64,000 nt of DNA, from contig JAYWIR010000038.1 of the NCBI GenBank assembly GCA_036172245.1, forward strand, positions 186,001 through 250,000. The letters run 5' to 3'. The notes beneath the pieces are model-generated. The model was not told the DNA's origin and made no database searches. It was given only the letters and a program-made list of their open reading frames with translations. Below, in pieces: positions 9,030-63,289 of this stretch. The DNA comes from Raillietiella orientalis (taxonomy: Eukaryota). The position numbers and the translations under genes are program-made. How positions within the stretch are numbered: position 1 is the first letter of the stretch; the number at the start of each line of letters is the position of its first letter.

Positions 9030-10265
9030 AACAGCTGCCTGCATTTTCCAGGAAACCCTCAGCTGGACGGATAATCCACTTATCCGCCGACCGGCCATCT
9101 TCCGTGGATCTGCTCCGTGCTCTCCACCGACAATCCAAGTGGAGCTGCTGGAGGCAACACCCGATTGACGCCACCACGGGAAGCACCCCTGCCGTCGTTC
9201 TTTTCCCAGTTTCACCCCTGGACGCACGCAGCTACGGTCTCGTCCCTTTGAGGAAACCTGATCGTGGATGGATGCGTGGTTCACCTGGTCGCGTCGAATA
9301 GGTGGTGGCGGGGCGTCACTTGCAACACCGCAGGAAAGACGAAGCCCATTGGTGGGTGGGGGATGCCGCGACCCTGAGTGCCCTTTCCAAAGGGCTGAGC
9401 GGTGCATCACCCACGGGTTGCTCCCATCGGCCTGCGGTACTGACCGACAGCTTCTCCCTTCCCTTCAAGCGGCCGCGGTCGGAGCTGCCGGTCCTGCGCT
9501 GGGGGAACCCCGCGCAACGCTCTCCGGGAGGCGCTGAACCACGGGGACGGGTGGAGGCGGATCGGAACCATGGTGGACGCAGCACCTGTTCGTGGACTGC
9601 GGCGCCCTTTCGTGCACTCTCTGGAGACGTGGCGACACACCTACTCTATTAGTACGATGCGGAGGGTCCTCCTTACTGGGGATCCTCTTTCTGCACAACC
9701 GGAGGGGGAACTCCCCACTCCTTGATTCCTGGAAGGACCCGGAGGTGGACTCCCATTTGTCCCGGCCCTCATCGAGGGCATCCGGTTTGAACCGCTACCA
9801 GTTCCTCACCCGGATGGATGTAGGCCAACCAGCGTCATCTTGCGGGAGGAACTCAAACCCACGGCGCCCTGCGCCGATTCCTTTCTCGGAGTATTCGAAC
9901 CTGCGACGCTTGGTGGTGCCACGTGAGGAGACCGCAGCAGCCACACGGCCTTCGACGTGGCGGCCCTTCGGCTCCCGGAGGGCGGCACCCGAGCTATTCT
10001 CGGGCGTCTCTTCGTGCGCGCTGCGCTTCCGCCAGACGCACCTTGCAGCAGCTGCTCGCGCCGTCTTCGCGGGAGGAACCTGCAGGCATCCTGGAAGTCC
10101 CCCTCACGAGCGTAACAGGCGCCCTCCCGCTAAAGGATTCCTCATTCCATGTTTATTTATTTATCCTTTCTGCTTGTTTCCTCTTCCTCCCCCCCGTTTT
10201 GTTGCCCGGACGGACCTCGCCGGTCCTTCGAGCGCCCTGAGCGCCACGGGGCAACCGGGTGATCA
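9030..10265 (+). mobile_element. 5'-truncated L1/Tx1-like retrotransposon 3' part, interrupted by SINE copy A
   Basis: QHLFVDCGAL zinc-finger end at ~9580-9609; ..ILGRLFVRAAL resumes after 9962; T-rich 3' UTR; terminal CACGG-GGCAA-CCGGG-TGATCA at ~10245-10265. Confidence 0.7.
9611..9961 (-). mobile_element. tRNA-headed SINE-like element, copy A (5' part only)
   Basis: Aligns to the head and first ~350 nt of copies B/E (GGTTCGAATAC, GATGACGCTGGTTGGCC, GGTTCAAACCGGATG). Confidence 0.85.
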
Positions 10266-12110
10266 ACCTGCTGCAGTGGAGTCGAGCATCCCCCCTCCGG
10301 TCCTGCTCGTCCAGCTAGGCGATCGGGCTGGGCCTCCAGGTCTGGTGCCCCGGTCCCTTGCCCAGACCTCGCAGTCCAGCGTTCTTTTCCAGGACCGCAC
10401 ATGCGGGGATGTGCGCTCGTTGCGCATCCCCTCGTCCGGGCAGGCGACCCGCCGGGACCTTCCTGTGGGACTCTCGAACGCCGAACGCCGCCTGAGGGCG
10501 TCCCGGTCACGAGTGCTCTGTAGCTTCCAGGAGTTCAGCCAGCCTTCTGGCGCAGGCGCCACGCGGGGGAGGAGGCCCTCCCGGAGGGGAGGCGCTTTGA
10601 CCCCGATCCGATGTCGCCGCTGCGGGTGTCGGCGGTCGAGGAAGGCGGTGGTCGGCGACGCGGCTGTCCGTCCCAGACCGTCCAAGCAACAAGTTGCGCG
10701 TGCGCATCGCTGCGTCGGGCTCGTTGACTCGATTGCGGCACCCGCGAGCGTGCAGAGATCGAGGTCGCCTTCTGTCGGGCGATCTCGACCGCATCCGCCA
10801 GCCACCCAGGGCCCAAGATCCTCGCCTCGGAGAATTGGAGGCTGCGCGCCGGTATGCCGACTCGGGCGCCCTGATGCTGGACAGAGTGCAGCCGTAGATG
10901 CAGTTGCGACTACGCGCTCCTTGCTCCAAGCCGTGGACTTTCCCGTGGTGCGAACCTCGTCCTTCGGCGGCTAAGGACTCCTCCTCTCGTTGATGCAGTC
11001 GCTCCCGGTACAGGAAGCAGGGAAAGCAGGGATTTGGCTTCCCCCTGAGCAACTAGCTCATCAGTGGATCTCCTGCCACCCAAGTGGACTCGAATATCTA
11101 GCGGCGGGAGGGGCGGTTGTACGTTCCAACGAATGCGCCCAGTGGACCTTCGTCGTCTTCCTCTGCTATCCTTTGGGAGGAGAGGCACCGGAGGAGACGA
11201 GGACCCTGGCCGGCGCGCTTCTTGCCGCTGCCTGCCCTCAGGGAAAGCGACGGCAGTTGCCTGCCGGCGGGTGGCAGTTTTCCTGCACCACTGCAGGGAG
11301 GGCGGAACTCCTATGAGGCTGGAAGACTCGCGAGCCGGCGGACGCCGCCACTTCTCGGCCACTGGCCAAGGGACCACATCGATGGTCCGAGCTTTTGAAT
11401 GCGCTCCCTGGAGAACTCATGGTCAGTCCCTTGTGTCTGGGCACTTCGGCGTTCCCCTCGAGCTGGAGACAGGCTGCTCTGCTACTCCCATCCTGTGTGC
11501 AACCAGCGTCGATGCCTCATCTCCTGGGGGGCCGCGTCCCCGGACTGTGCCGGGGCAGGTCGGTGGGGTCAAATCCGCGCCTGCTATTGGACTGCGTTGA
11601 CCTCAGCGAGCTGTGTCGAAGGCTGACTTGGGGCTCCGGCGACAGGAGGATATCTCCCGTGACTTCCTGAGATGATCCTTATCTTGTGGTCGACTCCCGG
11701 CTGGTGGAGTGATGGCGACAACGTGTTGCGTCCGCGTCATCGTCACGCCCCGCCACTCCCTGGGGAAGGAAAGGCAGCAAAGGGAGGTCATCCGCATGGC
11801 AGACACTTACATGAGGGTGAGCTCATCTGGAAGAAGTCAAGGCGGAGAACGGCAGCATCCAGAGCTGTTTCTGGGAGCAAGGAACGGCCGACAGCCCCAG
11901 TCCCCATCAATTCCTTATTCATTATTTATTTGTTTCCGCCTCACCCCCACCCATTCGGGGCTTTTCCCGATTTCTTTTATTTTCACCGACGTTTGCCAGG
12001 AGGTGAATCTTCGGGAGCTGATGCCTCCGTCTCTATGCGTAGGGCTGACTAGGTTCTTCCATCATCCATTCCCTCATTAGCAGTGGCTCCTGGAACTTCT
12101 GCTGTTTTCG
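10266..12110 (+). mobile_element. Decayed L1/Tx1-like ORF2 (degenerate RT, thumb, zf-RVT) plus 3' UTR
   Basis: FQEFSQPSG (RT domain 6-like), QGFGFPL (GGLGLP-like), WRQAALLL...LLLDCVDLSELCRRL zinc finger. The C-terminus is homologous to those at 39750-39830 and 50270-50360. Multiple frameshifts. Confidence 0.7.
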
Positions 12111-17927: not shown

Positions 17928-18623
17928 CTGAGAGATGAGCACAAGTAAAAAATGCATCCTTTTTTTTTCTTTTTTCTTTTTCAAGATGCTTAATGAAAAG
18001 CTAAGAACTCCCCCATGTGGCACTTGTAGGAATCAAAATTCAACTTCCTTCCTTCCAGCTAAATGGAAAACTGGTTTCATCCACTCCAGAACACTTTACA
18101 GACATCCACAGGATCCACAGGATTGTTGGTCATCGACGTGTCTTTTCGAGTTTGGGGCTGAAGATGTTTTCATCCAGTCAGCGAGACATGGAAGCGCTCT
18201 GTTAATTCGCTCGACCTCTCGCGGCAAGAAAAGCAAGGACGTTCGAACACTTCATAGTTCTTCCAGCCTTCTTCCCATGATTTTTTTTCGGAAAGAAAAG
18301 AAAGAGAGAAAAGCTTTCCGAGTTTCTCAGAGATGACGTCTGCATGTCTTTCGTGGCAATTTCGTCTGCAGATTTCCTCTGCGATTTCTTGTTTGTCCTT
18401 GAAACGAGAAGCAGTTCAATGTTCCTTGCATGAGTCATTTTTCAAGATCATTCAAGATTCATGCAATGGGACATGGCGACAATTTCCGTGAATTTGCTAT
18501 ATGAAAATCTTATCAAACTCAACTTATTCTGAAGGACAAAAAATTCCTTTACGAATTCGCACGAATTGTATCTCGATTTCCTGCAGATATTCCAGTGTTC
18601 AAATTCAGCGCAGGACGGCATTC

Positions 18624-19367
18624 TGATGGAAATCTTTTTTTTTTCTGTCTTCGCAGTTCTTCGACACGGTTCCACGCCACCCGAGGGTGGGTAATTCTTT
18701 AAGATAGGGGGTACCCCGGGAAGGTTCTGCCTAGGAAGGACTCGAAGTCCGTTCCTCTCACGCCTGGGGAGGGATCCCCGGAAATGGAGATCACCTCCAC
18801 CCTGGTTGTCTCCGAAGGGGAATGCAGAAAGAAATCCTTCTTCCTTATTCTCTCCGGAGGACCCCGGGGGGTCTGCTCCATTCTTTCGTCTCTGAAGGGA
18901 TCCCCCGCAAGGGATCCGCTCCTGTTTTTACTCCTCTGAAGAGAACTTCGAGGGGAAGCTTCCGAGATCCAGAAGGACGCAGCTTCCCCGAAGGGATCGG
19001 CTCGCTTCTCTGCACTCACTGGAGAGGTGGTGGCGACACACACCTTCTCCATCAGTACGACGCGGAGGGTCCCTCCGGAATGAGGGGTCCACTCCTTCAC
19101 AACCGGAGGGGGGCTCTCACTCCGTGATTCCTGGAAGGACCCGGAGGCCGACTCCCATTTGTCCCAGCCCTCATCGGGGGCATCCGGTTTGAACCGCTAC
19201 CAGTGCCGCACCCGGATGAATGTAGGCCAACCAGCGTCATCTTGCGGGGTGAACTCGGAGAACCCAAGACGCACTGCCCCGTCGATTTCTTCAGAGTATT
19301 CGAACCACGACGCATGGTGGTGCCACGCGCGGAGACCACCGTAACCACCGTAACCTCCGACGCGGGC
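18624..19367 (-). mobile_element. tRNA-headed SINE-like element, copy B (near full length)
   Basis: Starts GCCCGCGTCGGAGG..TGGTTACGG; B-box-like GGTTCGAATAC at 19306-19296; high identity to copies D and E. Confidence 0.9.
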
Positions 19368-29000: not shown

Positions 29001-29951
29001 TCATCAACAGCCACTTAAAATGGAAGTTGAAATTCATAGATCGTATTGCGTTACGGATGATTCTTCCATATTCACGGAAGACGGTTTCACGCATGAGCTC
29101 CCAGTTCATCCTAGTTCATAAGTTTCGTGACATCCTCCAGCTTTTCTTGGATCTTTTCTATCATGTAGACACTTTCCAACACTTTCTAAAATTCGAGAAG
29201 CTACTTTGGATTCTCTCAAAGGAAAATAACTCTTCGAAGATGTAATGGAGGGGCGACTGGAAGGTTTCTGTCCCTTGGTTACGAACAGAGTTCGCTCCAA
29301 GAACTCCGACACGAGAACTTCCAGAACGCAAAGCGAAATCGCTTCGGCGGAGCCTTTTGTATGCCAAATTGTCCCGAGGCGAGAAAAGTGCCAGTTCGGA
29401 GCAGAGGCTCTCGGGTTCCCATGGAATGCGTTTCCATGCATATTCCGATCGATACGAAAAGTGATTCCTCTTCTGATGCGATAGAAGAATGACGAAATCA
29501 CCCGCCAGGATGTCGATGCCGCCTTACTACCTGGAAGGACCTTCCTTCCTTCGCAGCGAATTGTCCCTCGCTGTCTTCTTGTTTTCTGGAACGTCAACGA
29601 GAAAGGATGCGGGGGAATTTCGCTCGTCGCCTGTTGGCAGGGGCTCTAGGCAAAGTGGGAAACTTGAGGTGAAATTTCCCATTTTGGGCTGCACGCATTT
29701 TTGTAGCTTCGTGTCTAATGAACACCTTCCGAGTATACATCCTTTCATACCCTGATATCACCTAGTGATCAGGGAGCATCAGATCTTGTGTTAATTTTTG
29801 GACGCGGGCGCCGTGGAAGAATAGAATCAGCTAAAGACGACTCGCATCCACATGACCCTTTGGCGGGTATTTGCTCCAAGTTGGCAACCTGAGGCGCAAG
29901 AAAAGCGACACGGCGGGAGCGGCGATGCTCGTTCGGAAACACACAGATAAG

Positions 29952-30902
29952 AGGGAAAATGCTGCGGATGCTGCTCCAAACGGGGTGTGCATCTCCGCGA
30001 AACCACCATTCCATCGCTTTGCCGCGTGGTGGTGGTGAGGGTTGCGCTCCTCCGAAGGCGAAATGATTCCCATTCCCTTTTCGCTTCGGTTCCCTGCTGA
30101 AGTGATTCGAAAGCCCCGAGATGACGAGAAGTCAATTGCAATGGAAGCATTGTGTTTCCATGGAATTTTTTAGTAACGCCAACCGATGTGAAATCAAGAA
30201 GCTTTGAACGGCCAAATCCCACCCTGATTCCTGGAAGGACCCGGAGGTCGACTCCCATTTGTCCCGGCCCTCATCGGGGGGCATCCGGTTTGAACCGCTA
30301 CCAGTGCCTCACCCGGATGAATGCCGGCCAACCAGCGTCATCTTGCGGGGTGAACTCGGAACCCACGGCGCGTGGTGTGGTGCCACGCGCGGAGGCCACC
30401 GTAACCACGCGGCCTCCGACGCGGGCAAAGTTTGACGCAAAGGTTGCTGAAAAAGAATTGTGCAACAACAGTTTGCTCAATTCGGTTTGCAAAACCGTGA
30501 AATTGAGACACGAAGGATATGCTTTCACACGATTTTCACTAAAGGCTTGCAAATGCAGGGAGAAGTTCCCAAAAGGGATAACGGCATCTTGTTTTGACAG
30601 AAGGATTGCACAATCCCAGCCTTCGGTAGGTGCCGTTAGGAAAGGGTTCGATTCGAAGGCAGAATCACTGCTGGAGATACAAAACGAGCCAAGCAAACCA
30701 CGTTAATAGCATCTAAATCCTCATTCTCATCATCTCGGGACTTTTCGAAACACTTCAGCAGGGGACCGAAGCGAAAAGGGAATGGGAATCATTTCGCCTT
30801 CGGAGGAGCGCAACCCTCACCACCACCACGCGGCAAAGTGATGGAATGGTGGTTTCGCGGAGATACGCATCCTGTTTGGAGCAGCATCCGCAGCATTTCC
30901 CT
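29952..30902. repeat. ~180-bp inverted repeat (29952-30130 / 30724-30902) with ~590-bp spacer
   Basis: Arms are reverse complements with about 10 differences; the spacer contains SINE copy C. Confidence 0.95.
30225..30426 (-). mobile_element. SINE-like element copy C (head fragment lacking the first T-arm module)
   Basis: Matches the 5' ~200 nt of copy D, including a similar internal deletion. Confidence 0.9.
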
Positions 30903-32199
30903 TCAGTCGAATCAAATCACTTAAAGCAACCTTTTCCGGGGAAAGTGCCGACACCGATAAGCAGCCAACAGGCAAAACGCCCTTGAAACCAACCGCCATC
31001 ATGAATTCTTCCAAGCATCCTAAAGCGCTACACGGAAACGGTACAGAATACAATTCTGCGACGCCCGTGTGTGGGGAAAAAAAAAAAAAAAAACGAAAGA
31101 AAGAAGAAATGGGGCTGCTTGCCTCTGAATTTTAGACTAGCACGAAAAAACTCTCTTTGATCCCGGCTCCATTATGTGTCATGCACTCCGGTTACTTGAA
31201 AGAATGGGATTGCGCCGCCTCGCACTTTGTTTTCTAGAGCAGGTTTGGCAGGTTCGGCCTACAACGGGAAACACTACAAACCTGAGCCACATATTTCACG
31301 GTTATCTGCAGGGTGGACACGGAACACTGCAACGGCGGTTCGCCTGGCGTCCAGGGACTGCCCCCGTCTCCGGGAAACGGCGCTTCCAGAAGTATCGGTG
31401 CCAACAATGACCCGGGAGGAAAAAGGGGGGGGGGGGAAGGCGTCTAATTTTATCGCTCGCATTGTTGGCTCGGTGCGTTTCCATGCCTCCTGCTGCTGCG
31501 TCAGGAGGTCCGTCCACTCCAGCGATCGGAACGCACCCACGGTCCTCCATCTCAAGATCCCTCCTGGTGGCGCGCGTCACCTGCCACCAGTGGCTCCTGC
31601 CGGAAATGTGCGACGCGTTTCCCAGGCGACGGCGACGGATTCCAGCGACACCTGGAAACGAAGGCTCCGTCGAAAGTCTTTCCTTCGGGTTTCGTGCACC
31701 GAAAACAACGGTGGTGGTGGTCGCAAGTCTTCGCGCTGCCTGCTGCTGGACCCGTCTGCCTCCCGTGTGGCCCGCAGCTCCGGGCTCAAACAGGAATCGC
31801 CGTCTCTGGATCGTAAAACACGTGGGAACACTGAACACAACGATATGCTTTCCTGCACCCAGAAAAAAAAAGGAAAACCGAGCCAGAGCTTGAAAACACA
31901 AATCTATTTAGTTTAAATAACGCCGCTTAATGAATCCAAATCGAAACCAATAACAGTATGCATGCAAACACACATTGCATAGTGAGCAGGGAGGCAGTCA
32001 TGGATATGATTGGATTTGCGGAATCCTCGAGATGCACACGAACACGGCAAGATTGCTGCCAGCAAAGAGCAAAGGGAACACCTTTTTCTTCTTCCTTCCA
32101 TGAAAAAGTAATGCCACATGCATTAAGAGGTGCGTGGGCACACACACTTCATAATTTTTCAATACTCATGCCAGATGGTGCATTCTCCCGCGTGTTGCT

Positions 32200-32640: not shown

Positions 32641-32962
32641 AGAAGACTGCATTTTGACATGCATCAGAAAAGGAGCATCAGGACCAGAGCAGGTTCAAAG
32701 TGTCACATGGGTTAGAAAAAAAAAAAAAACGAATTTGGTGGTCATTGCCTACAGTGCTTCAGGTTCGTCTTTTCTGCGGTCCTTCAACGACGAACTGCAT
32801 CCTTCTGCACCAATTTCAGTCACGTGGCGAATTCAATCCTCGAATCGTAGAAAGAAGCCAAGATCCACTCATGGAGTCTTGCTCATAGGAGTTTATATGA
32901 GCTACGAAATCCCGCAAGAATTCTGTGAATAACCGTCTGAATCGCGTGAGCCATGAGAAAAT

Positions 32963-33725
32963 CCGCGTCGGAGGCCGCGTGGTTACGGTGGTCTCCGCAC
33001 GTGGCACCACCAAGCGCCGTGGGTTCCGAGTTCACCCCACAAGATGACGCTGGTTGGCCTACATTCATCCGGGTGCGGCACTGGTAGCGGTTCAAACCGG
33101 ATGCCCCCGATGAGGGCCGGGACAAATGGGAGTCGGCCTCCGGGTCCTTCCAGGAATCACGGAGTGAGAGCCCCCCTCCGGTGGTGAAGGAGTGGACCCC
33201 TCATTCCGGAGGGACCCTCCGCGTCGTACTGATGGAGAAGGTGTGTCGCCACCACCTCTCCAGAGAGTGCAGAGAAGCGAGCCGATTCCTTCGGGGGAGC
33301 TGCGTCCTTCTGGATTTCGGAAGCGCCCCCTCTAAGTTCTCTTCAGAGGAGTAAAAACAGGAGCGGATCCCTTGCGGGGATCCCTTCGGAGAAGAAAAAA
33401 TGAAGCGGATCCCTCCGAGGGTCCTCCGGAGAGAATAAGGGAGAAGGATTTCTTTCTGGACTCCCGTTCGGAGACAACCAGGGTGGAGTGATCTCCATTT
33501 CCGGGGATCCCTCCCCATGCATGAGAGGAACGGACTTCGAGTCCTTCCTGGGCAGACCTTCCCGGGGTACCCCCTATCTTAAAGAATCACCCACCCTCGG
33601 GTGGCGTGGAACCGTGTTGAAGAACTGCGAAGACAGAAAAGAAGGATTTCCATCATCCTAAAGGCCAGTAGCGACCGGCGCCCCACGTGGCTGGTGCCAC
33701 GTGGTGCGTTTCTACAAAAAGAAAG
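32963..33725 (+). mobile_element. SINE-like element copy D (near full length, A-rich tail)
   Basis: Reverse complement of B/E; ends ...GATTTCCATCATCCTA...TTTCTACAAAAAGAAAG. Confidence 0.9.
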
Positions 33726-34691
33726 AAACGTTTTCCGAAAAGTCATTCCAGTCAGAATGCTGGGAGTTTTCCAAGAAATTAAGGGAGGAAAACTCAGTGG
33801 CTTCTAAGTGAGCATCCATACACGCATCCATGGAGGGGCAGCCTTGAGCACTTTGAACAGAGGGAGATGATGCGTGAAAAAGTTCTTGGCCGCGTTCATT
33901 CCCAGAATTTCAGCTAACGTTTGCTGTTCCTTACAGACAACAACACACCGTGAATTGAGTTGCTTCTTATCGAGAGTGTGCTGCAGTGGATACCCAACAG
34001 CGAGGTGTTCGTGCAAATTTCACCTCCCAAGTCAGGTGCACACCCGGACGACACCGCATAAGCGAAGGCCTGAAATAAAGGCGCTGCTTCTCATTTTCTT
34101 TCTTTCTTTTTTTTGATTTTCTGCTCCTGGCGACGGATCGAGCTAACTTGAGTTTACTCGACCTCGATGGCAACATTTCAGTTGACCATCCGGAGATTTA
34201 TACCATGGGCCGTTTGTGGGTCAGAGTTTATTTATTTATCTTGATGAAGGTGTGTAATGAGAACTTGCCCAAAATTCACTATGTGTGGGAAACTTTTAGG
34301 AGAGGGCTGGGGCTTGATTGGCATTCTCTTCCAAATTGGTCATAACGATTCGTTTCTGCGGGCTCTAAATGCGCATCGAGAATACAGTAACATCCAGACA
34401 TATCTGGAAATCCAATGCGATGTGAAGTACAGGATTCTTCAAAATCTCTCCTCGTCATAATCGGATTTCCAGGATTCGTTCTGGAAGAAGAGTTTTCTGT
34501 TTAAGGTAATTCCTTGAATCATTTCATCAACTACTGTAAGCAAAGTTTTTCGCAGCTGCTTTCATTGGACGGTCACGCAAAAATAAAAAAAAAAATCCAT
34601 TCGTACGAAAAAAAGAAAAAAAAAATTGCTAGGAGACGAGAGAGGAAACGTGCCTGTATTCTAGCATCTTCCTGAACGGACCCTTAGTTGA

Positions 34692-35386
34692 TCGACACGG
34701 TTCCACGCCACCCAAGAGTGAATAATTCTTCAAGATACGGGGTACCCCGGGAGGGGTCCGCCCAGGAAGGACTCGGAGTCCGTTCCTCACATGCATGGGG
34801 AGGGATCCCCGGAAATGGAGATCACTCCACCCTGGTTGTCTCCGAACGGGAGTCCAGAAAGAAATCCTTCTCCCTTATTCTCTCCGGAGGACCCTCGGAG
34901 GGATCCGCTTCATTTTTTCTTCTCCGAAGGGATCCCCGCAAGGGATCGGCCCCTGTTTTTACTCCTCTGAAGAGAACTTAAAGGGGGCGCTTCCGAGATC
35001 CAGAAGGACGCAGCTTCCCCGAAGGGATCGGCTCGCTTCTCTGCACTCACTGGAGAGGTGGTGGCGACACACACCTTCTCCATCAGTACGACGCGGAGGG
35101 TCCCTCCGGAATGAGGGGTCCACTCCTTCACCACCGGAGGGGGGCTCTCACTCCGTGATTCCTGGAAGGACCCGGAGGCCGACTCCCATTTGTCCCGGCC
35201 CTCATCGGGGGCATCCGGTTTGAACCGCTACCAGTGCCGCACCCGGATGAATGTAGGCCAACCAGCGTCATCTTGTGGGGTGAACTCGGAACCCACGACG
35301 CACTGGCCCGTCGATTCCTTCAGAGTATTCGAACCACGACGCTTGGTGGTGCCACGCGTGGAGACCAGCGTAACTACACGACCTCC
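34692..35386 (-). mobile_element. SINE-like element copy E with 13-bp TSD
   Basis: GACCCTTAGTTGA at 34679-34691 and 35387-35399 flanks the copy. Confidence 0.92.
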
Positions 35387-36239
35387 GACCCTTAGTTGAG
35401 AGGAAATCCGGAAGCCAGGTAGAAGAAGAAGCCTGATGCAACGGCGGGCGACTGGCAGCGCCTCACCTCGGACGGCGAATTTCTACTGTCCTGCGCACGT
35501 CCCGCGAATGAAAGGGCAGGGTGGGCACAGGCGACTGCATGGGACCTATTTGGGAAGCGCACTCGATCCTCACTGGAAAGGTGCATCGTGTGGCTTCGGT
35601 CTTGCGCTCTTGAAGTTGGGCGTCGTTCGTACTGAATGCCTACTGGACCTACTGAACAAGGTCACGGGATCCGAAAGGTGAAATCTGTTGGCGGCTGGCA
35701 CGACCATGTGGGAAACAGAGTTACCACCGGATACTGGGGATGACCTGCTGATGTTTTGATACGGAGGTATCCTGAGTGGCTCCCGACTAGAACACTCGAG
35801 GGTCAGCAGGCAAGAGGAGCTCTGCAAGGCCCGCGGAGATGGGGAAAACCGTGCTCCACGTTTTCGCCTGCCCGACACCGTGCCAGGATTGGACAAGGCT
35901 GAAGGCGGTGACCGGCCTGAAGACGAGCACGAAGATAGAGATCCTGGCGGGAATGTTTGAAGGGGATGGGAACGTTCCCCTGATTCAGTCCCATGGTTCG
36001 CACCACCATTGCCCTGTTCATCACGAGCATAAGAAGGGCAAGGATGAGACGGAGAGACGGAGCCTGCCACGACCATCGTCCAAGGAATCACCTTGGATTT
36101 CAGATTCATGTTCACAGTCAAAAACTGCCAACATAAATTGTAATGGTAAGAAAAAAAAAAAAGCCCGATTAACCTTCCACTTTTCATATGAGCGCTTTGC
36201 GCTTTCTGCTATCCTCTGTCTTCCTTTTTTCGATATCAT

Positions 36240-42639: not shown

Positions 42640-44050
42640 CTCTCAGAGGGGTGCCGACCCATGTTCCCTCGTTTCGCGCCGGATTTGCTCCGACTGAGGT
42701 CGCTGCGAGGCGGGGCGCCGGGGTGCTCGCCTGCCGCTCGCTGCTCGAGAAGACCGCGGTCGCCTCGCGCGCTTTTGCGGAATCGCCTGGGAATTCTCCG
42801 GAGAAAACCCACCCTCCAGTATCTCAGGCCTCAACTCCTGCCCCTCCCTTTCCCCTTGATGGATGTTCCCGACCCGATTCGGTGTCTCTGAGAGATTCCG
42901 GGAGCAGCATCGGAAAAGCGTTCCTTGGGAGTGGGCGCACCTGCCGGGCGGAGTGGAGCGTGCCGTGTACGCGCAAGCGATGACGTCAGCAGACGACGAG
43001 CGCTCCGAGGAAACCTTCGGAAGACCTACTGGAACTTCTCCGCTGGTTTCGGAATCCCAACGAGAGCCGTTCCCCATGAGATTTTGGATCGCGCGAAGCT
43101 GCTTATCCAGATGTGGTTGCCGCCAGATGGAAAGAGGAGAGGCACGTTCTGATACCGTCGGAGGCAGAGATGCAGACGCCGCGCCGTTTCCCCGCGACCG
43201 ACGTCGCTGAAGTGAGTCCACCGAGGGCCGTGGGTGCCCCGTTGGTTGGGGAGCCGCGGAGTTCAAGCCTCGTCCGGCGAGACTTGGGCAGCAATTTCGG
43301 TGCTCCTCGGATGCGAGGCCACTCGAAAAAACGTTTAGGGCGGAGACGTTGCGTCGGGGCGTCTGGTGAGAGCAAACTGGTGCGTCGGCCCGAACGGGCT
43401 TTTCAGTTTCAACTCGGAGTGCGACCAGAGTGAGCCCAGGGCCCGGCGCGTATCGAACCTGGGAACAGCAGGCGAGGATCCTGCTGGCGAAGATTCCTGT
43501 CCGGGATCGATGTTGGCTCCAGTAACCAGGGACACGGGCCCTTCGAAAGTTGAAGCGTCCGGTAGGGGGGGAGGAGCCTCTCGCTGCAATCTCTGGAACG
43601 GAAATGCCCGTGTAACCCTTCCTTAGGAAGAGTCCTCCAACCAAGACTTGCCGGAAATGCTCGCGTGTTCGCCCATCCGGTCGGGTGCGGATTGGCCCCT
43701 GAGGCAGGTAGCGCTTCCTCGACCTTTGCGTTGCTTGTTGCTTCTGCTGTGTAAAAATAAACGCCCCGAGGGACCCGGGTGAGGATGCGCTTCCTGTTTC
43801 TCCTGCCGAGCGCAGCTTCGGGGACCCCCCGGGAGACGCGCCGGCGAAAGCGGCGGTGCCCCTAGGCGATTGGGTGCGACCCTGGAGATCTTCCTCGCCT
43901 TCTCGAGGCAAGCAGACCCACCCCGTGAGTCTGCCAAGACACCGGAGTGTGCACCCGCGGAGGTGTCCGATCTGGTCCAGTCTGGATGCCTCGCTCGCCG
44001 TGCTGCCATGGAAACGACCATCGACTTCGTTCCGTTCGCACCCCTCGGCG
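42640..44050 (-). mobile_element. GC-rich decayed ORF1-like sequence (downstream half of the target split by the 44051-46741 insertion); includes a short plus-strand L1 3' end at ~43620-43785
   Basis: The frame continues across the TSD (..RKSSPRG|ANGTKSM..); AATAAA-CGC-CCCGA-GGGAC-CCGGG at 43756-43779. Confidence 0.45.
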
Positions 44051-45730
44051 TTGCCACCCGGGTACGCCGGGGCGTTTATTCAAATTCTCTTACAAATGTG
44101 GTACTAGACCCCACTACAGCCAACACAACTCTGGACCTGCCGGGTCGCCGGTACGCAGACCGGCATGACTCTCCTCGGCAGTGGAAGGGGATGGAGAAAA
44201 AACAAAAAGAAAAAAAAAAGACTTTGGAGGGCCGGGAAAGGATCACTGGACACTGGGAGGAAGGTCCATCCTTTGCAGTATGCCCTCGAGGTCCTTCTGC
44301 ATTTTACCCAGGTGGGGCCATCGGGTTGTTCTCCGCAGGAAGCGAACTGCATCCTCGATGACGTCCGATGACGTTGGCATCTTCATCGTCGGCTTCACTC
44401 CAGGCCGCCGCAAGCCCACGGATGCAGCAAAGTGCTGCCAGGGTTGCGGCTGGCTGCAGGACGTCCCGCACGAAGAGAAGCCGAAAAAGGTCCCTGGGGG
44501 TGTTGCCAACCGGGATCCGTATGGAGGTAGCAAAATGTTCCCACAAGGGCCGGAGGGCAGCGCAGTCCACTAACAGGTGGGGGAGGGATTCCTTCTCCCC
44601 GCACACTGCACAGTTCTGTCCTACCTTCTCCAACGTCCAGTGATGGCGGCACGCGTTGCAGGGAAGACCCCAGTGCAGCAGCAGCAGCGCCGTTCCCTGC
44701 CACTTGAGGGGGAGGGTGGACGTATCTGTAAATACCGGGAGCCACTTTAGGTCATCCAGCGGGATGCCCAGCAGCTCGCCCCGTCTACGAATTCCTCGCG
44801 GGAGGACGCTCAGGATTTCGGTGTCAGCCAGTTCCCTCGTGGTCCAGCCGCTCATCATCTGCTCCCTGCCCGCTATCCGGCAGGAGACTTGCCACCTCGA
44901 CGTTCGGCTGCTGCCGAGCGCCCTCCTCAGGAAGGGCAGCGCCGTGGACAGTGGGTCGTCTCCGCCCACGTGCTTCTGGCGGGACACTCGAGCATGTTCC
45001 GCAGCGTGCAGCAGGCGTAGATGCCGGATCGCAGAGAGTTCCAGGATTCACCTCCGGACTGGTTGAGCTTCGTCCACGTGTCAACTGTTTCTTCCAGCTA
45101 TGCGCTGGAGTTGGCGGGGCTGCAGGCCATCCATCCGTTCTCCTTTGCCAGGGTGGCCATGCGTCCGAGGAGGAGGCCGTATCTTATTTTCCGTCCCGGG
45201 CACAGAAGAAAAGACGCGAGTCCTTCGGTCCCGGACACACGCCTGGCGAGGAGGCGGGCTGGAACGCACCAAGGGGTGCTCCACATCTTCGCTGCGATGG
45301 CCATGGTGCGCCATCGCAGCTGTATCTCCACGCGCTTTAGCGTCAGGAGGCTAAGACCGCCGTCCCGACGCGGAGCGCACAAGTCCTTCAGAGGCACTCG
45401 GGGCCTCCCCTTGCCCCAAAGGGCGATGCAGGGGAGGTCCTTGGTCCTTTTCTTCACAACGACGGGGACGGGCAAACAAAAAGTAGGGGGCGCAGGATGG
45501 GGGTCGCAAACGCGTTCCAAACCGCGGCCCGTTCCGGCACCTGTTTCGCGTATCAGCAAAGTGAGTTCATTACCAGGGGGGAAGCTCTGCTGAGAAGCAT
45601 TGAAAAAACTCCGCGGGCAGGCCGTCCTCCCCTGGTGCCTTACACCTCTTGAGCCCTTTAATCCCGGCGAGAATCTCACCGGTCTCAAAGGTCGTAAAGG
45701 TCGTAATAATCTCGTCGAGGCTATCCTTCT
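44051..45730 (-). pseudogene. L1/Tx1 ORF2 remnant: RT domain 0 fused to thumb and zf-RVT, then 3' UTR
   Basis: EILAGIKGLKRCKAPGEDGLPAEFF (~45690-45600); ALWGKGRPRV..LCAPRRDGGLSL; HWGLPCN...CAVCGEKESLPHLLVDCAALRPLW; AATAAA at 44080-44075 plus hairpin. Confidence 0.92.
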
Positions 45731-45734
45731 CCTC

Positions 45735-46741
45735 GGCCTAGGATGATGGAAATCCTTGGGTTCTCCTTTTTCTTCCGTTTTCGCTGTTTTCCTTCTAGCT
45801 TTTTTCGTATTTTTTAAGAGTTTTCTTTTTTTTGGTTCGCTAAGTACCTCAGAGCCGGTCGCGTGCCTCGCGGCGCACGTGGCTCTTTTAAACACTGTTT
45901 TGGTTCCACGCCTCTCCTCTGCGACAACCCCGCAGGGGGGCGTGTAATTCTTTAGTGTAATTCTTCAGGATAGGGGGCACCCCGGGATGGGGGTCCGCCC
46001 TATGAATCCAGGAAGGGCTCGGAGTCGTTCCTCTCACGCTTGGGGAGGAATTACCCCCGGACGGGGGATCGCACCTCCCACCCTCGTTGTCTCCGAAGGG
46101 GAACCCCAAAGGGAATCTCCTTCCTTATTCTCTCCAGAGGGAACCCCTCTCCATTTCATCTTCTCCGAAGGGAACCCGGAAAGGATCCGCTAGTAGGAAT
46201 TTCTTCTCCGGAGGGAACCCGCAAGGGAACCGCTCCTGTTTACCCCTCTGAAGAGAACCCCGAAGGGACGCTTCCGAAACTCAGAAGAGGCGCTGCAGCT
46301 TCCCACAGGGAATCGCTTTCGCTTGCTTCCTTGTGCACTCTGTGAAGAGGCGACGACTCGGAGGGACCCCCCAACAGGGGGAGTCCGCTCCTTTTAACAA
46401 CTAGAGAGGTGCCCCTGAGGGCTCCTGCTCCATCTTGAAACCGGAAGGGTCCCCCCGGTGAGGGGGGTCCGCTCTCTGTTGCATGACAGGAGGGGGAACT
46501 CCCCACTCCTTTATTCCTGGGAAGACCCGAAGGTCAATTTCCCTTTGTTCCGGCCTTCATCGGGGACTTCCGGTTTGAACCTCTATCGGTGCCGCGCCCG
46601 AATGTTTGTAGGCCAACCAGCGCCATCTTGCAGGAGAAACTCGGAACCCAACGATGCAGTGGCGTCCGTTTCTGCCGGAGTATTCGGACCCGCGACTCAT
46701 GTGCCACGCGCGGAAGCCTTAACCACAAAACCTCTGACGCG
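45735..46741 (-). mobile_element. SINE-like element copy F (diverged, five internal modules)
   Basis: Collinear with B/D/E from the head (GCGTCAGAGG..GTGGTTAAGG) to AAGGATTTCCATCATCCTA. Confidence 0.85.
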
Positions 46742-49410: not shown

Positions 49411-49599
49411 GGACAGAACGAAGTGGTTCCGTCTGGTCTCCACCGTCCCCTGCCTCAACGCCGTCTGCCCCGAGGGAGAGCAACGACAGACTCCAAGCGG
49501 CAGGGCGGGACTTCTGCACTGTCGCCTCAGGGGTTACGAAACTTCCGGGCTACGAGCGAGCTGGTGGACGCCGCCGCTGATCCGCATTCCCGGGCAGTG

Positions 49600-50240
49600 C
49601 CATCCGGTCACCCCGGGTGTTTATTAAAACTCTTCTATACGTTTGTGGTACAAGGCCCCACTACGGTCAAGACATCATGGGACCTGTCGGGTCGCAGATA
49701 CGCAGACCGACTCTCCTCTCCTCGGCAGCGGAGGAAAATGGGGAAAAACAAGAAAAATAAAACAAAAATTAAAAAAAGAAAGAATTTGGAGGACCGGGAA
49801 AGGATCACCGTCCTCTGGGTGGAGGGTTCATCCTTTTCAGGATGCCGTCGAGGTCCATCCGAATGTTTCCCAAGTGAGGCCACCGTGTAGCAATCCTCAG
49901 GAAGCGGACTGCAAACTCTATGAGGTCCCTTTCGTTGCTTCCTCCGCTTGCGTCTCTCCATGCTGCTACAATCCCCTCGGACGCAGCAAAGCGATGCCAG
50001 GGTTGCGGCTGGTCGCAGAGCGTCCTGCAGCAGGAAGAGGAGCCGAAAAACGTCCCTGGGAGGGCAGCCAACTGGGATCCGGAGGGTCGTCAAGAAACGT
50101 TCCCACAAGGGCCGGAGGGCAACGCAGTCCACTAACAAGTGGGGGAGGGATTTCCTTTCCCCACACCTGGCGGCAGTTCGGGTTCATCCTCCCCAACGTC
50201 CAGTGGTGGCGGCGCGCATTGCAGGGGAGACCCTAGTGCA
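49600..50240 (-). mobile_element. L1/Tx1 3' fragment (zf-RVT to terminal hairpin)
   Basis: LVDCVALRPLWERF; close paralog of 44051-44680; AATAAA at 49625-49620 plus CCCGG-GGTGA-CCGGA. Confidence 0.9.
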
Positions 50241-50244
50241 ACAC

Positions 50245-55050: not shown

Positions 55051-56569
55051 CAGGAGCGCGCCGTGCTGCGGTCCCGCCCGCGCCGAGGCCAGGTCGACCC
55101 AGGGTCAGGACGGCCAAGGGGAATCGAGGTCCGCAGCTCCAGAAGAAGGAAAGTGGGGTCTTCCTCCTCCCCTCCTCCTGACACCACTTTCCAGACCACC
55201 TCCTGCAGCAGCGACACCTGTCCCGCCTCCCTGTGGCGGTCCCGCTCGGTTTTGACGAGAGCCCCAGGGTGGTCGCGAGCGCGGACTATTGCCCCTGCCA
55301 GTTGCCCCTCTCGTGCTCCCGCGGGCAGTTAAGGGAGCCACGTGGCATTCATGGAAGCGCCCAGAGGTACTGACCAGAGACCTCCGTTGCGGTCCTGCTC
55401 CCCAGGCGACTCCTTCCATCCGCAAAGGACCGTCATTCCTCCAGGGGCAGAGGAGAGGCCAGCTTCAACATGGCAACCCCGACGCCGCCCACCGGGCAGC
55501 GCGAAGCCGCGACGGCACTTCCCGGAGTCTGCTGGTTCTTATTGGAAGGTGGATGGTTCATTCGCGCAGGACGCTGCGTTGCCAGGACGCCGTGCTGTCA
55601 TCCCGGAGTCCCTGTGGCGCACGCGACCTTTTCCTTGCCCTGCCGCTCGTGAACCCTCGGGCGGTGCACTGGGGCGGGAAAGGAGCCCTCCCCCTAAGGG
55701 AGGAAGGACGCGCGTCCACTCCATGAGATGAAGCTGCGACCTCCACATTCCTGAGCGAGGCGAGGACCCTCCAGCTGGGGCGGACTCGCTACACTCGGTC
55801 GCCTTCCTACCCGGAGGGGGAACGCCTCCCGGCAGCGGAGAAGGGATCGAACGAAGGAGGCAGAAAGCACCGGCGGATCCAGCGGGGAGAACAGGCTGGA
55901 CAGGAGGCAAAGGGGAGGCGCCCCAGGGGGAGGAGTCCTTCCAGGCGGGTCTCCGAGACATCCGGAGGCGCCTCCCGGAATGCATCCGGAAGGCGCCTCC
56001 AAGAGGCTGTCGGAACCCGTTCGGCCTACCCGCTGAGCCCGAATGGATTACGGCCGTGCGTCCTCCGCGTGAGCGGCACCACAGAACGTCGCGGGTTCGA
56101 ATCCCGCACGGGAAGAAAGGTCGACTCCGAGAACGGGAGCGCATTGTGTGGGCTTCGAGTCCCTCTCCCCTGCCTGGTGACGCTGGTCAGTCTCTTCGAG
56201 GGAGGCGTTGGTGGAATCCGGAAACTCCCGGATGCCCCCGTTAACTGGCCGGTAGTGGAAGTCGACTTCTCCCCTCAAGGGCCTTCCGGGACATCAGGGA
56301 GTCCTTCATGGTTTCCCTCCGGTTGTGCAAATGGAGTCTTCCACCCCCTTGGGGGAGACCCTCCATCGTATACCTTGGAGCTGGTTAGTACCTCTCTAGA
56401 GTGCAAGAAGCGTGCTGCTCCCTTCGGGATTCTGTTCATAGGAGGAGAGAACAAAGAGCCGTTCCCTTGCTGGTTCCCTCTGAGCAGGAAACGAGGAGCG
56501 ACCCACTCCGAGGAGGTCCTCTGCAGAGAGAACGAGGAATAGGTTCTCTTGGAGTACAACCAGGGCGGA

Positions 56570-57893
56570 GGGTTCCAGGGTTGCCCTGGTGGCGAATATA
56601 TGGAGCATCAGCTAGTGTGAAACTGCACGATACCTTGTCAAGCGAGCCACCGGCTGTTCTCGTTCCTGGCGCGACGACACGGGCGCAACGTGTCCAGCTG
56701 CGGAATGGAGCTCCGGCGAGTGTCCAAGCTGACCAGGACCAACAACTGGATCTCCTGCCGGCCCACGAACGGTAGTGCCTGGCTGCAGGAAACAGTGAGC
56801 ACGTGGACCAAGATGAGCAAAGAGAGTCTGGAGATGCGGCAGCGACTGCTGCATTCCTTCTAAAACTACCGCTCGCTGAAGGACTCATCGTGCAGCCCAC
56901 CCCGTGTGCGTGGGCGCAAAAAAAATCCCTAGCCACGGCATTGTCCTACCTCAAAGAGCACATGGGCAATAACCAGACGGTCAAATGGGAGGTCAGTTCC
57001 CAAATCAGTCACAAGACGAGAGAATTTGGTGGTTGAATCACAGGCCAGCTCATGGATGCTGAAACCCCAAGTACCCCACCGAAAGGACTACTGCGCTGGG
57101 GTGAGCTGCTGGGAATCCCACAGGAAGTACTCGAGTGGCCCCATGCGCTGAAGAACAACCGGGCCTTCCCCCTGAAGTGACAGGGGTCGGCACTTCTGCT
57201 GTTGCACCGGGGACTCCCTTGCGACGCCCGCCGCTCTCACTGCACCCGAGAGGCTGCGGACCCCAACTGTTACAGCTGCAAGGAACGGGAATCCCAGCTC
57301 CCGCATCTGCTTGTGGACTGTGTCGCCCTCCGGTCCCTGTGGTCGCGTTACGCAACGTCCCTTGGTGCACCGACGGACAATCCTAGGGACGTGGTGAAGC
57401 GCCTCTTCGTGCGCGACGCCCTTTCGTCTGCGCATCCCAGCATCTCTTTGATGCTGCCTACGCGGGATTGTGGCGGCCTGGAGCTACGCGGGATTGTGGC
57501 GGCCTGGAGCTACGCAAGAGTAGGACGGCGTGATAGGATGCCATCTGCTTCGTCCTCCCCTTCCTGCGGACGGCAGTCAGATGGGACAGGTAGGAGTATG
57601 CGCCAGGTAGGAACCTGACGCATACTCGGGTGGAACTTGCCAGCATCCTCGAAAGGATGCAGAAGACGTCCTCTAGCACCAGTGATCCCTTGCCTAAGCC
57701 TCCCAACTTTCTGTATATATTTTTTCGTTTTATTTTTATTTCTGTTTGCCCCTCTGCTGCCAAGGAGGACCCCGCCGGCCTGCGAGCCGGTTACTCGGAA
57801 GTTTCTAAGCATTTTCGGACAATGTAGGGCCGATGGCCCTACACATGTATTTTTATTTTTTATAATAAACTTCCCGGAGTGACCGGGTGATAA
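56570..57893 (+). mobile_element. 5'-truncated L1/Tx1 element with 12-bp TSD
   Basis: HRGLPCD...CYSCKERESQLPHLLVDCVALRSLW; ends AATAAA-CTT-CCCGG-AGTGA-CCGGG-TGATAA; TSD AACCAGGGCGGA at 56558-56569 and 57894-57905. Confidence 0.93.
57458..57515. repeat. Perfect 26-nt tandem duplication inside the L1
   Basis: ctacgcgggattgtggcggcctggag x2.2. Confidence 0.9.
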
Positions 57894-58566
57894 AACCAGG
57901 GCGGAAAGTTCTCTTTGGGGATTCCTACCAAGCGTGAGAGTAAAGCGCACTCCTTCCTCCGGAGCCTTCCTAGATTCGTAGGGCGATCCCTCCGGGGACA
58001 CCCTCTAACTCGTACAGTCAGCATGCACCTCCCGGGTAGCGTGGACGCTGTCCAAGAGCTCTTTCCTCCGGAGTCTTCCTAGATTCATAGGGTAATTCCT
58101 CCGGAGCCACACCTCTACGTTGAAGAGTCAGCACCCATCCTAGGGTGGAGTGGGCGTTGTTAAAGAAGAGCTCCGTAAGCCCTCCCTGAGGAAGCGAGCC
58201 CGGCGGTTCTTCAGCACCCCTTGAGGACCAAAAAAAAAGAAAAGAAAAGCCGGACGGAAGCTGCGAAACCGGAAGAACCCCCAAGGATTCCCATCGCCAC
58301 GTCCCCGCGAGGTCGCAGCTGGACTTTTCAGAAGAAAAAGAAAAGAATGCGTTCCGGTCGAGGGGAGCATTTCGCTCCGCACCGATGAGGATGATCTTTC
58401 CGGACGGAGGAAAGGATAGCTGCCGTGACGCTCCAGTACCTCCAGCATCTGGTCCGAACCGTCAGCTCATGGGACGACTTACCGCTCGAGCCTGCGCATG
58501 GAACCGACGTCCTCGTGTCCGCCATGGCGCCACCAGAGTGCGACTGGAAGAAGGTAGAGCCGAGGA

Positions 58567-58735
58567 TAACCGCTACCAGTGCCGCGCCCGGCCACCCGGC
58601 CGCGTCATCGCGCTGAGGGAACGCGAGTCTGCTAAGCACCCGCCGTTCTCGGCGTCGATTCTTTCAGAGTATTCGAACCCGTGACGCTTGGTGGTGCCAG
58701 AGACCTCAGCAGCCACATGGCTTCCCACGCGGGCG
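58567..58735 (-). mobile_element. SINE-like element copy H (head only)
   Basis: GCCCGCGTGGGAAGCC...GGCACCACCAAGCGTCACGGGTTCGAATACTCTGAA...GGCACTGGTAGCGGTT. Confidence 0.8.
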
Positions 58736-61330: not shown

Positions 61331-62424
61331 ATCCAAGGCGGGTTTCTCTCCCATTCCGCTAGGGGGTTGTGAGGGTGCGGGCGCCTAGGTAAGTTCTTGG
61401 GCGGCAGCCGGAAGGACAGGCAACCCCGTAGGTGAGCGCGAGAATCGGGAAGCAGCAGCAGCAGCGAGTGGCGTTCTAAGGTGGTCACCCGCCTCGACGG
61501 GAAGAGCTGGGGAGGGTTCCTGGAAAGGAGGCGCGTCCTCCGGGTCCCAAACGGGAGCGATGGGGGGTGCGTGTCGTGGGGTCATCGGCATCTGGGATTC
61601 CCTCAGAGACCCGAGATGCTGTGCGAGCGCGGGTCCTCACGCTGCTGCCTGCCGAAGATCCGAGGGGGAGCGGAAGTTGGCGGCCTTGTTAATCCGTCTT
61701 TCGCTGGCCGTCTCCAGAGACCCCGGACGGGTCTCCCTGACGCTCGAGAGGAGTCTCCGTCGGTGTTCATCCCGCCTGCTCAGGGTGATACGGATCTTGA
61801 AGAGGTTCGCTTTCCTTTGTCCCCTCCTTCTCCTTCCTTCCTGCTCCTCCTTCCTACTTATGATGCTTGAACGATCTGTTCCTGTTGGCTACGGAGTCCG
61901 GCATGATATGCCGATGCAGCCATCCTGGTGGATCTGGAGATCGCCACTGTCCACTAAAGCAAGCTGTGAAGACGGCGCATTTGCAACTGGTCCGAAGGGA
62001 GATCGCGCAGTGGATGGAAGCAAAGACCACAGACTGGACAAAGATGGAACCATGGAGTAGGCGGCCGAATACACGCAGCAACATCTTTTCATGGTGTGCT
62101 GCTCATCACGGAGTGCAATGAAGCATCCAAGCGCAGTGAACCCAAACACCACCGGCCCACTGCGCATTCGAATGGGCTCGGACTTGCCGTGGAGTACAGT
62201 CTGAAAGTCGACGCGGCAGCAGCAGCGGTCGCTATCCTTCGGGACTGACAACTTGCCTGTGCAGATGGTCAGACTGTGGTCAGGCTGCAGGGCAAATAGC
62301 GCATCTGTTTAGGTGGCAGCATAGGTCATCAGAGCCCCGCAACGACCTTACGACCACAGTGCACCTGATGGGAAGAGAAGCCGTAGAGTAGAAATGCTAC
62401 ATCTTGTTTGCCCTGATTCGGGGA

Positions 62425-63289
62425 CCTCAAGCTGATAAGAACAGGGACGCGGATTCGGTGGTCTTCTCTTTTCCCTTGCTGGCTCTCCAATTTCTGTAGA
62501 ATCGTCCACCTTTTCAGGGAGGTCTTACGCAGTTCCTCTTTAACGCTGTCCGCGCCATCCGAGGGTGCGTGTGACTCTTCAAGGTATGGGGTGCCCCGGG
62601 AAGGGATCACCCTATGCATCCAAGAAGGCTCCAGAGGAAGGAGTCCGTTCCTCTCTTACGCTTGGGAGGGAACTCTGAAGGGAACCTCCTCTTCCTTGTT
62701 CTTTCCTGGAGAGGTCCCAGGAGGGGGTCTCTCATTTTATTCTCCGAAGAAGACCCAGAAAAAATCCGCTTTTAAAATTTCTTTCTCCGGAGGGAGCCCT
62801 CAAGGGATTCGCTCCTGGTTTCCTCCTCTAAAGAGAATCTTGAAGAAGCGCTTCCAATTTCTCAGAAGGACGCACCCCCAAAGGGAGCAACGCTCTTGAC
62901 ACTTTGGAGAGGCAGCCCTCGAGGGGGTATCAACCAGCTCCATGATACGCGATGGAAGGTCCCCCCCCCAAGGGTGGAGGAGATTTCCTCTTCACCACCG
63001 AAGGGAAACCCCGGAAAGCTCCCCAATTCCCAGAAGAACCTCGGAGGGTCAAATTCCAGTCCCGTCCAGTCAACGGGGTCATCCGTTTTTTTTACCAGTG
63101 CCGCAGCAACCGAAGCCCGTGATTCGGCCAGCATCACTCTGCTGAGGGAAGGGTGTAACTCGAAACTCACGACGCACCCCTTCCCCCCCCCATTTCTCGG
63201 AGGGTGGACCTTTCCTCCAATGGGATCCGAACCCGTGACTCTCGGTGCCACTAGCGGAGGCCGCAGCCACACAGCGCCGCGGACCGAAA
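62425..63289 (-). mobile_element. SINE-like element copy I (diverged, full length) with 10-bp TSD
   Basis: Head GGTCCGCGGCGCTGTGTGGCTGCGG...GGCACC..CACGGGTTCGGATCCC; collinear body; GATTCGGGGA at 62415-62424 and 63290-63299. Confidence 0.8.

Follow-up and report, generated by a model that had tools for sequence, protein, structure and literature searches.

Short interspersed elements (SINEs) are defined in SINEBase as non-autonomous retroposons of <700 bp that are transcribed by RNA polymerase III (Pol III), carry a head from transfer RNA (tRNA), 7SL or 5S RNA, and end in a simple-repeat tail; the 175 families given there have consensus lengths of 75–662 nt (Vassetzky and Kramerov 2013, PMC3531059). 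Chimeras of SINEs with long interspersed elements (LINEs), flanked by direct repeats, have a precedent in Mg-SINE/MGL of Magnaporthe (PMC2104539). Here, a repeat family with copies A to J is described from a 64-kb stretch of one contig of Raillietiella orientalis (assembly GCA_036172245.1, contig JAYWIR010000038.1, positions 186,001–250,000 of the forward strand), hereafter called the window, on which all results rest. The family is probably a LINE-dependent, non-coding, non-autonomous retroposon of the non-LTR (long terminal repeat) type that is SINE-like in its working. One of its copies lies together with a fragment of an L1-like LINE inside a single exact target-site duplication (TSD).

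SVA is a long retroposon of the RNA polymerase II (Pol II) type, non-autonomous and mobilised by L1, and has a poly(A) tail, a variable number tandem repeat (VNTR) and parts derived from Alu and from human endogenous retroviruses (HERV). The family in the window resembles SVA in its kilobase length, the absence of coding capacity, the presumed use of L1-type machinery in trans, its TSDs and the truncation of some copies; it differs from SVA in that the latter has the poly(A), VNTR and Alu/HERV parts, and no tandem array was found in the element. With tRNA-SINEs, as characterised in SINEBase (PMC3531059), it shares being non-autonomous, non-coding and dispersed, the presence of subfamilies, a defined 5' end with a B-box-like motif near it, TSDs of variable length and dependence on LINE machinery. 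Differences from the same description are found in the head, which is tRNA-like in the T-arm only and lacks the B box in two young copies, and at the other end, where neither a simple-repeat or poly(A) tail nor a significant LINE-derived 3' region is present. The unusual length, already claimed in the initial annotation of the window (made from the sequence letters), stood up to the comparison: the element measures 695–1007 nt against the 75–662 nt and <700 bp of SINEBase (PMC3531059), and only copies E (695 nt, incomplete at either end) and D (705 nt, deleted) come near the 700-bp limit. The element works like a SINE because it would be copied by LINE machinery, but it is not filed as a tRNA-SINE, being too long and too little tRNA-like. 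Its length, missing tail and barely tRNA-like head make it a borderline case for the SINE definition, and annotation tools with an upper limit set on SINE length would probably misclassify it. The family is ordinary in kind, and the current understanding of non-LTR retrotransposition is not overturned by it.

Copies were collected with a profile of 739 positions made from B, D and E, which was run over the window with nhmmer and then iterated once. This yielded 13 pieces (E-values 1e-279 to 1e-11) and the same 13 after iteration, with one weak extra match on the duplicated tail of H (E 0.0034, then 3e-08 after iteration) excepted from this range; the pieces resolve into A to J. Self-BLAST and a repeat search returned three long copies with 93–96% identity and several weaker ones. 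The family is represented by nine insertions in ten pieces, the number of insertions being nine and not ten because G and H belong to a single copy that a LINE insertion has divided. The "about ten copies" of the initial annotation were thus right as to the family and all of its pieces and wrong as to the count. The copies are as follows.

Copy A, 9569–9962, minus strand: middle-aged, head intact, stops at about profile position 396 (nhmmer E 1e-85, iterated 4e-104).
Copy B, 18609–19367, minus strand: young, full-length, 759 nt, profile positions 3–739, probable 3' end ...CATCAGAATGCCG.
Copy C, 30208–30426, minus strand: young, profile positions 3–247, stops at about profile position 250–260, with the same 44-nt deletion as D.
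Copy D, 32962–33666, plus strand: young, 705 nt, with a 44-nt deletion of the B box, 3' end ...CATCATCCTAAAGGCC.
Copy E, 34692–35386, minus strand: young, 695 nt, with ~9 nt of the consensus missing from its 5' end and ~60 nt from its 3' end.
Copy F, 45735–46741, minus strand: old, complete SINE-like part, 1007 nt, three nhmmer pieces, profile positions 4–676.
Copy GH, 5' part (G), 56040–56569, plus strand: old, profile positions 28–585.
Copy GH, 3' part (H), 57894–~58312, plus strand: profile positions 537–703, 3' end approximate, with an internal A-rich stretch.
Copy I, 58568–58734, minus strand: old, head only, stops at about profile position 173 (nhmmer E 1e-16, iterated 1e-30).
Copy J, 62425–63289, minus strand: old, complete, 865 nt, profile positions 12–717, no terminal poly(A).

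Young copies are ~750 nt long and old ones reach ~1000 nt; copy GH comes to ~950 nt when the inserted LINE is excluded. Pairwise identity is 91.6–95.8% within the young group (B, C, D and E), 85–90% between copy A and this group, and 72–84% between the old copies (F, GH, I and J) and the rest. These identity classes bear out the earlier distinction of young and diverged copies, with A between them, and with it the proposal of a long-lived non-autonomous family with young and old subfamilies. The proposed common 5' end was recovered as well: the profile match starts at positions 2–6 in seven of the nine copies, at 12–15 in J and at 28–33 in G, so that 8/9 copies begin within ~15 nt of one 5' position, G being diverged at that point, and the head motif GCCCGCGTCGGAGG (up to two mismatches) occurs four times against 0.62 expected. 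In agreement with the initial annotation, no conserved open reading frame (ORF) was found among the copies; the longest sense frames of B, D and E differ (165, 88 and 105 amino acids (aa)), and no Pfam match was obtained in ORFs overlapping the copies. The family therefore has, like a SINE, no coding capacity of its own. No match to an exact 23-mer of the family was present in the metagenome, prokaryote-genome or viral contig collections, nor was there any to a degenerate pattern of the head in the metagenome contigs.

Exact TSDs were found around four insertions. Copy E is flanked by the 13-mer TCAACTAAGGGTC (5' copy at 35387–35399, 3' copy at 34679–34691) and copy J by the 10-mer TCCCCGAATC (63290–63299 and 62415–62424). 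The 10-mer CGCCGAGGGG encloses copy F together with LINE fragment L1 (46742–46751 on the 5' side, 44041–44050 on the 3' side), and the 12-mer AACCAGGGCGGA encloses LINE fragment L3 (56558–56569 and 57894–57905). Each of these motifs has two sites only in the window, both at the boundaries. As a control, 20,000 random position pairs were drawn with the spacings kept, and exact matches between the boundary windows were counted; 0.08% of the pairs shared ≥10 nt and 2.8% shared ≥7 nt. The flanks of B have a weak exact match of 7 nt, degenerate over ~11 nt, and the flank comparison gave no TSD for A, C, D and I. The TSDs of 13 bp and 10 bp reported initially for E and for the copy at 62425–63289 (J) are thus exact and confined to the boundaries. 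A defined 5' end and TSDs of variable length (10 and 13 bp) suggest target-primed reverse transcription, in agreement with the mobilisation suggested at the outset, and the element TSDs of 10–13 bp match the LINE's own insertion (12 bp for L3). The RNA of the element would accordingly be one that is copied into the genome by the reverse transcriptase (RT) and endonuclease machinery of the co-resident L1-like LINE, which likewise has no poly(A).

This LINE family is present in the window with the following fragments.

LINE fragment L1, 44051–45734, minus strand: 5'-truncated, fused to the 3' side of copy F.
LINE fragment L2, 49598–50280, minus strand: 3' end of the same family as L1 and L3 (self-BLAST 76% to 44052–44680, profile E 6e-99, tblastx).
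LINE fragment L3, 56570–57893, plus strand: 5'-truncated, 1324 nt, inside copy GH (tblastx to L1, zf-RVT E 0.0034, 3'-end profile E 1e-79).
LINE fragment L4, 39537–40627, minus strand: recognised by self-BLAST, 3'-end profile and tblastx.
Further fragments of the same family around copy A, 9253–9512, 10069–10225 and 10826–11614, plus strand: on the strand opposite to A.

Fragments L1, L2 and L3 share ~300 nt at the 3' end (44052–44351, 49598–49897 and 57594–57893) and finish in ...AATAAAC..CCGGGTGGCA, i.e., a short GC hairpin followed by ..GGTGGCA, with poly(A) absent in all three. The sense strand of the LINE 3' untranslated region (UTR) has a long T-rich tract or T runs upstream of its end, and about five LINE 3' ends are present in the window. 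L3 sits between G and H with all strands alike, is collinear with the other LINE fragments (tblastx) and has the same ending. A direct repeat of ~53 bp (94% identical) flanks L4 (39484–39536 and 40628–40680); if this is a TSD, it is far longer than the 10–12 bp of the other insertions of the same LINE family.

The LINE was compared with known proteins through its coding remnants. The frame right after the last bases of F (45734–45573) was searched with phmmer against the PDB, and 5/5 matches were RTs of the L1 ORF2p type, with query residues 18–53 aligned to residues 455–490 of human L1 ORF2p (E 0.008–0.016). Fragment L1 starts at the equivalent of ORF2p residue ~440–455, lacks the RT core and, as follows from the position of the match, begins downstream of the would-be endonuclease domain; its zf-RVT remnant (E 0.0012) remained below the Pfam cut-off. 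Pfam scans were performed on all 240 stop-to-stop ORFs of the window with ≥100 aa, on 135 of 179 selected ORFs of 62–99 aa (those among the first 150 listed, minus 11 overlapping B and 4 at 35.4–36 kb), and on 150 of 184 ORFs in a third scan (those outside the copies and up to 61.9 kb). The ORFs scanned yielded no RVT_1 and no endonuclease domain by which L1 could be told from Tx1, the only signals being the two sub-threshold zf-RVT matches and one host exon of the CHD5 type. A search for homologous proteins with the LINE sequence found nothing, and phmmer of the LINE against 1.84 billion representatives gave only 9 matches, five of which were Pfam-scanned (four with zf-RVT, one of these also with RVT_3, and one with DUF938). 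In the ESM Atlas, the LINE retrieved zf-RVT clusters of uninformative taxon.

Copy F lies directly upstream of LINE fragment L1, both on the minus strand, and together they form a unit of 2691 nt (46741..44051; 2.7 kb) with one 10-bp TSD around it; both were therefore integrated as one unit. This co-integration is newly reported here and directly connects the family with the LINE machinery. The occurrence of element and LINE in one exact TSD argues, indirectly but specifically, for dependence on this partner LINE, and the link to co-resident L1/Tx1 elements that had been suspected in the initial annotation was thereby strengthened as far as an L1-like LINE is concerned, the PDB matches being to L1 ORF2p only. 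Copy D stops aligning with F at ...CATCATCCTA(AA)GGCC, which is the exact junction between F and the LINE (score 44, shuffles ≤30), and we infer that this point is the 3' end of the element RNA. The unit has the make-up of a template-switch chimera, i.e., a copy of a second RNA in the same orientation, 5' of a 5'-truncated LINE and inside one TSD: the RT would have begun on the LINE RNA and then jumped from it to the 3' end of the element RNA. An origin by read-through, with transcription running on from the element into a LINE fragment that lay downstream, is less likely; read-through by Pol III in particular is improbable because of the long T runs in the LINE 3' UTR, upstream of its end.

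U6-L1 and other L1–RNA chimeras of mammals are reportedly template-switch chimeric retroelements, to which the F+L1 unit can be likened. The Mg-SINE/MGL/WEIRD chimeras of Magnaporthe have the same architecture of a second RNA fused in the same orientation 5' of a truncated LINE within one short direct repeat, which is 10 bp in F+L1 and 14 bp in the Magnaporthe tripartite element (PMC2104539); a difference is that only one such unit is present in the window. As a natural case of the joint integration of a SINE-like RNA and a LINE within one TSD, F+L1 is a clean one, and it provides direct evidence from the genome as to which LINE serves a given non-autonomous RNA.

For the head, putative promoter boxes and tRNA likeness were evaluated separately. 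The B-box-like motif GGTTCGAAT occurs five times in the window (0.76 expected; 0/100 shuffles reach 5), and all five exact sites lie inside copies, namely A, B, E, G and I, with F and J being one base off. It is absent from C and D, which stand at different loci with different 5' flanks and have both lost the same 44 nt between 9-nt direct repeats; either a source lacking the B box was mobilised or the deletion happened on two occasions. The T-arm/B box is located at +59 to +75 of the head, and G has a perfect T-arm hairpin (GCGGG-TTCGAAT-CCCGC) at 56091–56107. The A-box-like or D-loop-like GTGGTTA (at about +20 to +26) is a loose resemblance; copies B, C, D and F have it, as do four unrelated sites. 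The two box-like motifs of the initial annotation were each recovered in part, the B-box-like one in the seven copies named (five exact) and not in C and D, from which it is deleted, and the A-box-like one in four copies. Runs of ≥4 T are absent from the sense strand of B, D and E, a weak observation since 35–45% of shuffles are alike and the copies are not independent.

The designation "tRNA-derived" is weakly supported: the T-arm/B-box motif was recovered and a tRNA was not, be it with ARAGORN at default settings, Rfam or RNAalifold. With default settings, ARAGORN detected no tRNA in the window and none in the nine heads; at 85% thresholds one of nine heads was reported (3/270 shuffles), with an acceptor stem borrowed from flanking bases, and at 70% five of nine with five different anticodons (91/270 shuffles). 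Rfam gave no match in the window at gathering thresholds. When E-values up to 10 were allowed for B (whole copy) and the heads of G, J, A and I, only G matched the tRNA clan, by an 18-nt local match to the T-arm of transfer-messenger RNA (tmRNA; 14.1 bits) that is due to its perfect GCGGG-TTCGAAT-CCCGC hairpin; B, J, A and I showed nothing tRNA-like on the sense strand, no tRNA family, 7SL or 5S matched any of the five queries, and G and J had weak antisense matches to a plastid UTR model. RNAalifold on seven heads resulted in −3.5 kcal/mol, no cloverleaf and 0 compensatory pairs. A conserved 5' head hairpin, taken from the fold of B, was considered and rejected: 74% of the cells were paired and covariation was absent, with one pair changed on both sides (447/500 shuffles equal) in a structure derived from B itself. 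The fold of B, with a z-score of −2.96 from no more than 20 shuffles, was not used as evidence. A relation of the head to tRNA would be a weak one, based on the T-arm/B box and the D-loop-like GTGGTTA. The first ~75 nt would be a relic of a tRNA-like sequence, and this relic may serve as a putative internal Pol III promoter; transcription of the element by Pol II is equally open.

At the other end, the apparent poly(A) tail of B, F and H is internal, the A-rich stretch lying 30–60 nt inside the element, and past it B, D, F, H and J continue with a common module (...AAGGATTTCCATCA...), with that of F aligning to D, B and H. The young subfamily is without ~100 nt between two similar GAACTGCG-type segments. 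The 3' ends defined by TSDs are ...GTGTCGA in E and ...CAGCTTGAGG in J, both lacking an A tail, while D and F end in ...GGCC. Local alignments of five copy tails with three LINE tails, evaluated against block-shuffles, gave p-values of 0.007–0.77, with 5/15 tail pairs at p<0.05, uncorrected and not independent. A short block GTGATCCYTTCCCGG and the motif GGGTGGC(G/A) are common to element and LINE tails and are a lead only; a LINE-derived 3' region, as in a stringent-type partnership, was not recovered from these comparisons.

Several self-contained features were noted within and around individual copies. D (plus strand) and E (minus strand) stand tail to tail with ~1 kb between them and are 96% identical, forming a large inverted repeat; since E is flanked by a TSD of its own, they look like separate insertions and not like a duplication. 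Inverted repeat arms of 180 nt (29951–30130 and 30724–30904, 93–94% complementary) surround the truncated copy C along with a further ~590 nt; candidates for them are a foldback, a palindromic duplication or an element with terminal inverted repeats. H has an internal tandem duplication of 109 nt (57950–58057 vs 58059–58166, 76% identity by self-BLAST). In the head of copy B only, a 9-nt unit ACCACCGTA (plus strand) is repeated 2.8 times at 19335–19359 according to Tandem Repeats Finder (TRF), which lengthens the D-loop-like region. An explanation of the length by an internal tandem array was rejected, as TRF found nothing in F and J and only this 9-nt repeat in the head of B; self-alignment of B gave one 44-nt match (70% identity, 25.4 bits vs a shuffle maximum of 22.6), which is marginal.

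A number of observations weigh against a LINE-dependent, SINE-like retroposon. A poly(A) or simple-repeat tail as in SINEs is absent, and a profile of the LINE 3' end run on the copies gave no significant similarity (best E 0.39). The 3' ends are heterogeneous: A, C and I stop at about profile positions 396, 255 and 173, and E stops ~60 nt early despite its perfect TSD, whereas target-primed reverse transcription does not typically produce primary 3' truncation. To these are added the two young copies at different loci without a B box, the weak relation of the head to tRNA, the missing of a convincing TSD around B and D, and the sample of a single 64-kb window. The early stops at the tail side (A, C, I and E) are the main weakness of the explanation favoured here, under which they would be later deletions or products of internal priming. 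Copy A sits among LINE fragments, and its early end may be a deletion in that nest.

That the family is instead a true tRNA-derived SINE, transcribed by Pol III from A and B boxes in the head that drive the whole RNA of 0.75–1 kb, is possible but doubtful. It would account for the position of the B box/T-arm with its canonical T-loop TTCGAAT at the expected distance (+59 to +75) from a constant, defined 5' end, for the D-loop-like GTGGTTA at about +20, and for the absence of runs of ≥4 T from the three long young copies in sense orientation, which is, however, expected by chance in 35–45% of shuffles. It is opposed by the failure of ARAGORN (default) and Rfam to detect a tRNA, by the absence of a conserved cloverleaf and of a simple-repeat tail, by the young copies C and D entirely without a B box, and by a length of 759–1007 nt beyond the 75–662 nt range and <700 bp definition of SINEBase (PMC3531059). 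The early stops could also be read in the opposite direction, with the constant "head" as the 3' end where the RT starts and the variable "tail" ends as ordinary 5' truncations of a longer retroposon. Four of the nine copies (A, C, I and E) keep the head and stop early at the tail, in E together with a perfect TSD and with a shortening of ~9 nt at the head, and the LINE is also without poly(A), its end ...GGCA loosely resembling ...GCGGGC(A) by eye. This reversal is nevertheless improbable, and the forward orientation was kept for three reasons. Both parts of the F+LINE unit have the same strand, and the head is at the far end from the LINE, which is what a template switch would produce, whereas the reversed reading would call for twin priming on another RNA; the T-loop has its canonical form when read forward and not in reverse; and D and F end at one point. 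In addition, the tail is complete in J and F, and later deletion can shorten old copies.

Contiguity of F with LINE coding sequence inside one TSD would also be seen if the repeat were the LINE's own 5' UTR or 5' region and F+L1 a full-length LINE with a large internal deletion, and the window holds no intact LINE 5' end to compare. We regard this as highly improbable because E and J each stand alone within a TSD and lack a LINE 3' end, because B, D, GH and J diverge mutually right after the common 3' module, and because the 64 kb contain nine heads and about five LINE 3' ends, whereas it is normally the 3' ends that are in excess; moreover, D ends exactly where F joins the LINE, and L2, L3 and L4 have no head upstream. 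A fragment of a LINE UTR was likewise rejected, the 5' ends not being ragged (8/9 within ~15 nt) and only one of nine copies being contiguous with a LINE. A solo LTR, a DNA transposon or a miniature inverted-repeat transposable element (MITE) was rejected on the basis of ends and TSDs: the element begins with GCCCGCG... and ends in ...GGCC or ...GAGG without a visible terminal inverted repeat, and its TSD lengths vary (10 and 13 bp), whereas an LTR would show TG..CA ends and a fixed TSD of 4–6 bp, and a DNA transposon or MITE terminal inverted repeats and a TSD of one length. A retroposon of >700 nt with putative Pol III-type boxes and neither a LINE-like tail nor poly(A) might have been amplified by the tail-less L1-like LINE via relaxed priming, microhomology priming or template switching and not via 3'-end recognition. 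We give this only a slim chance; if true, the family would be the longest SINE-type family known, and its mobilisation would fall outside both the "stringent" and the "poly(A)-relaxed" classes of SINE–LINE partnership.

The GC content varies from 36% to 66% across the window. The GC-rich stretches are decayed repeats, and the family and its LINE partner make up a sizeable share of these blocks. The AT-rich left part of the window contains an exon-sized ORF of the CHD5/GET1-like (WRB/GET1-like) type at 3333–3560 on the plus strand (Pfam E 6e-12), for which the ESM Atlas retrieved clusters from fungi as well as from plants; it is the sole host-gene signal found in the window.

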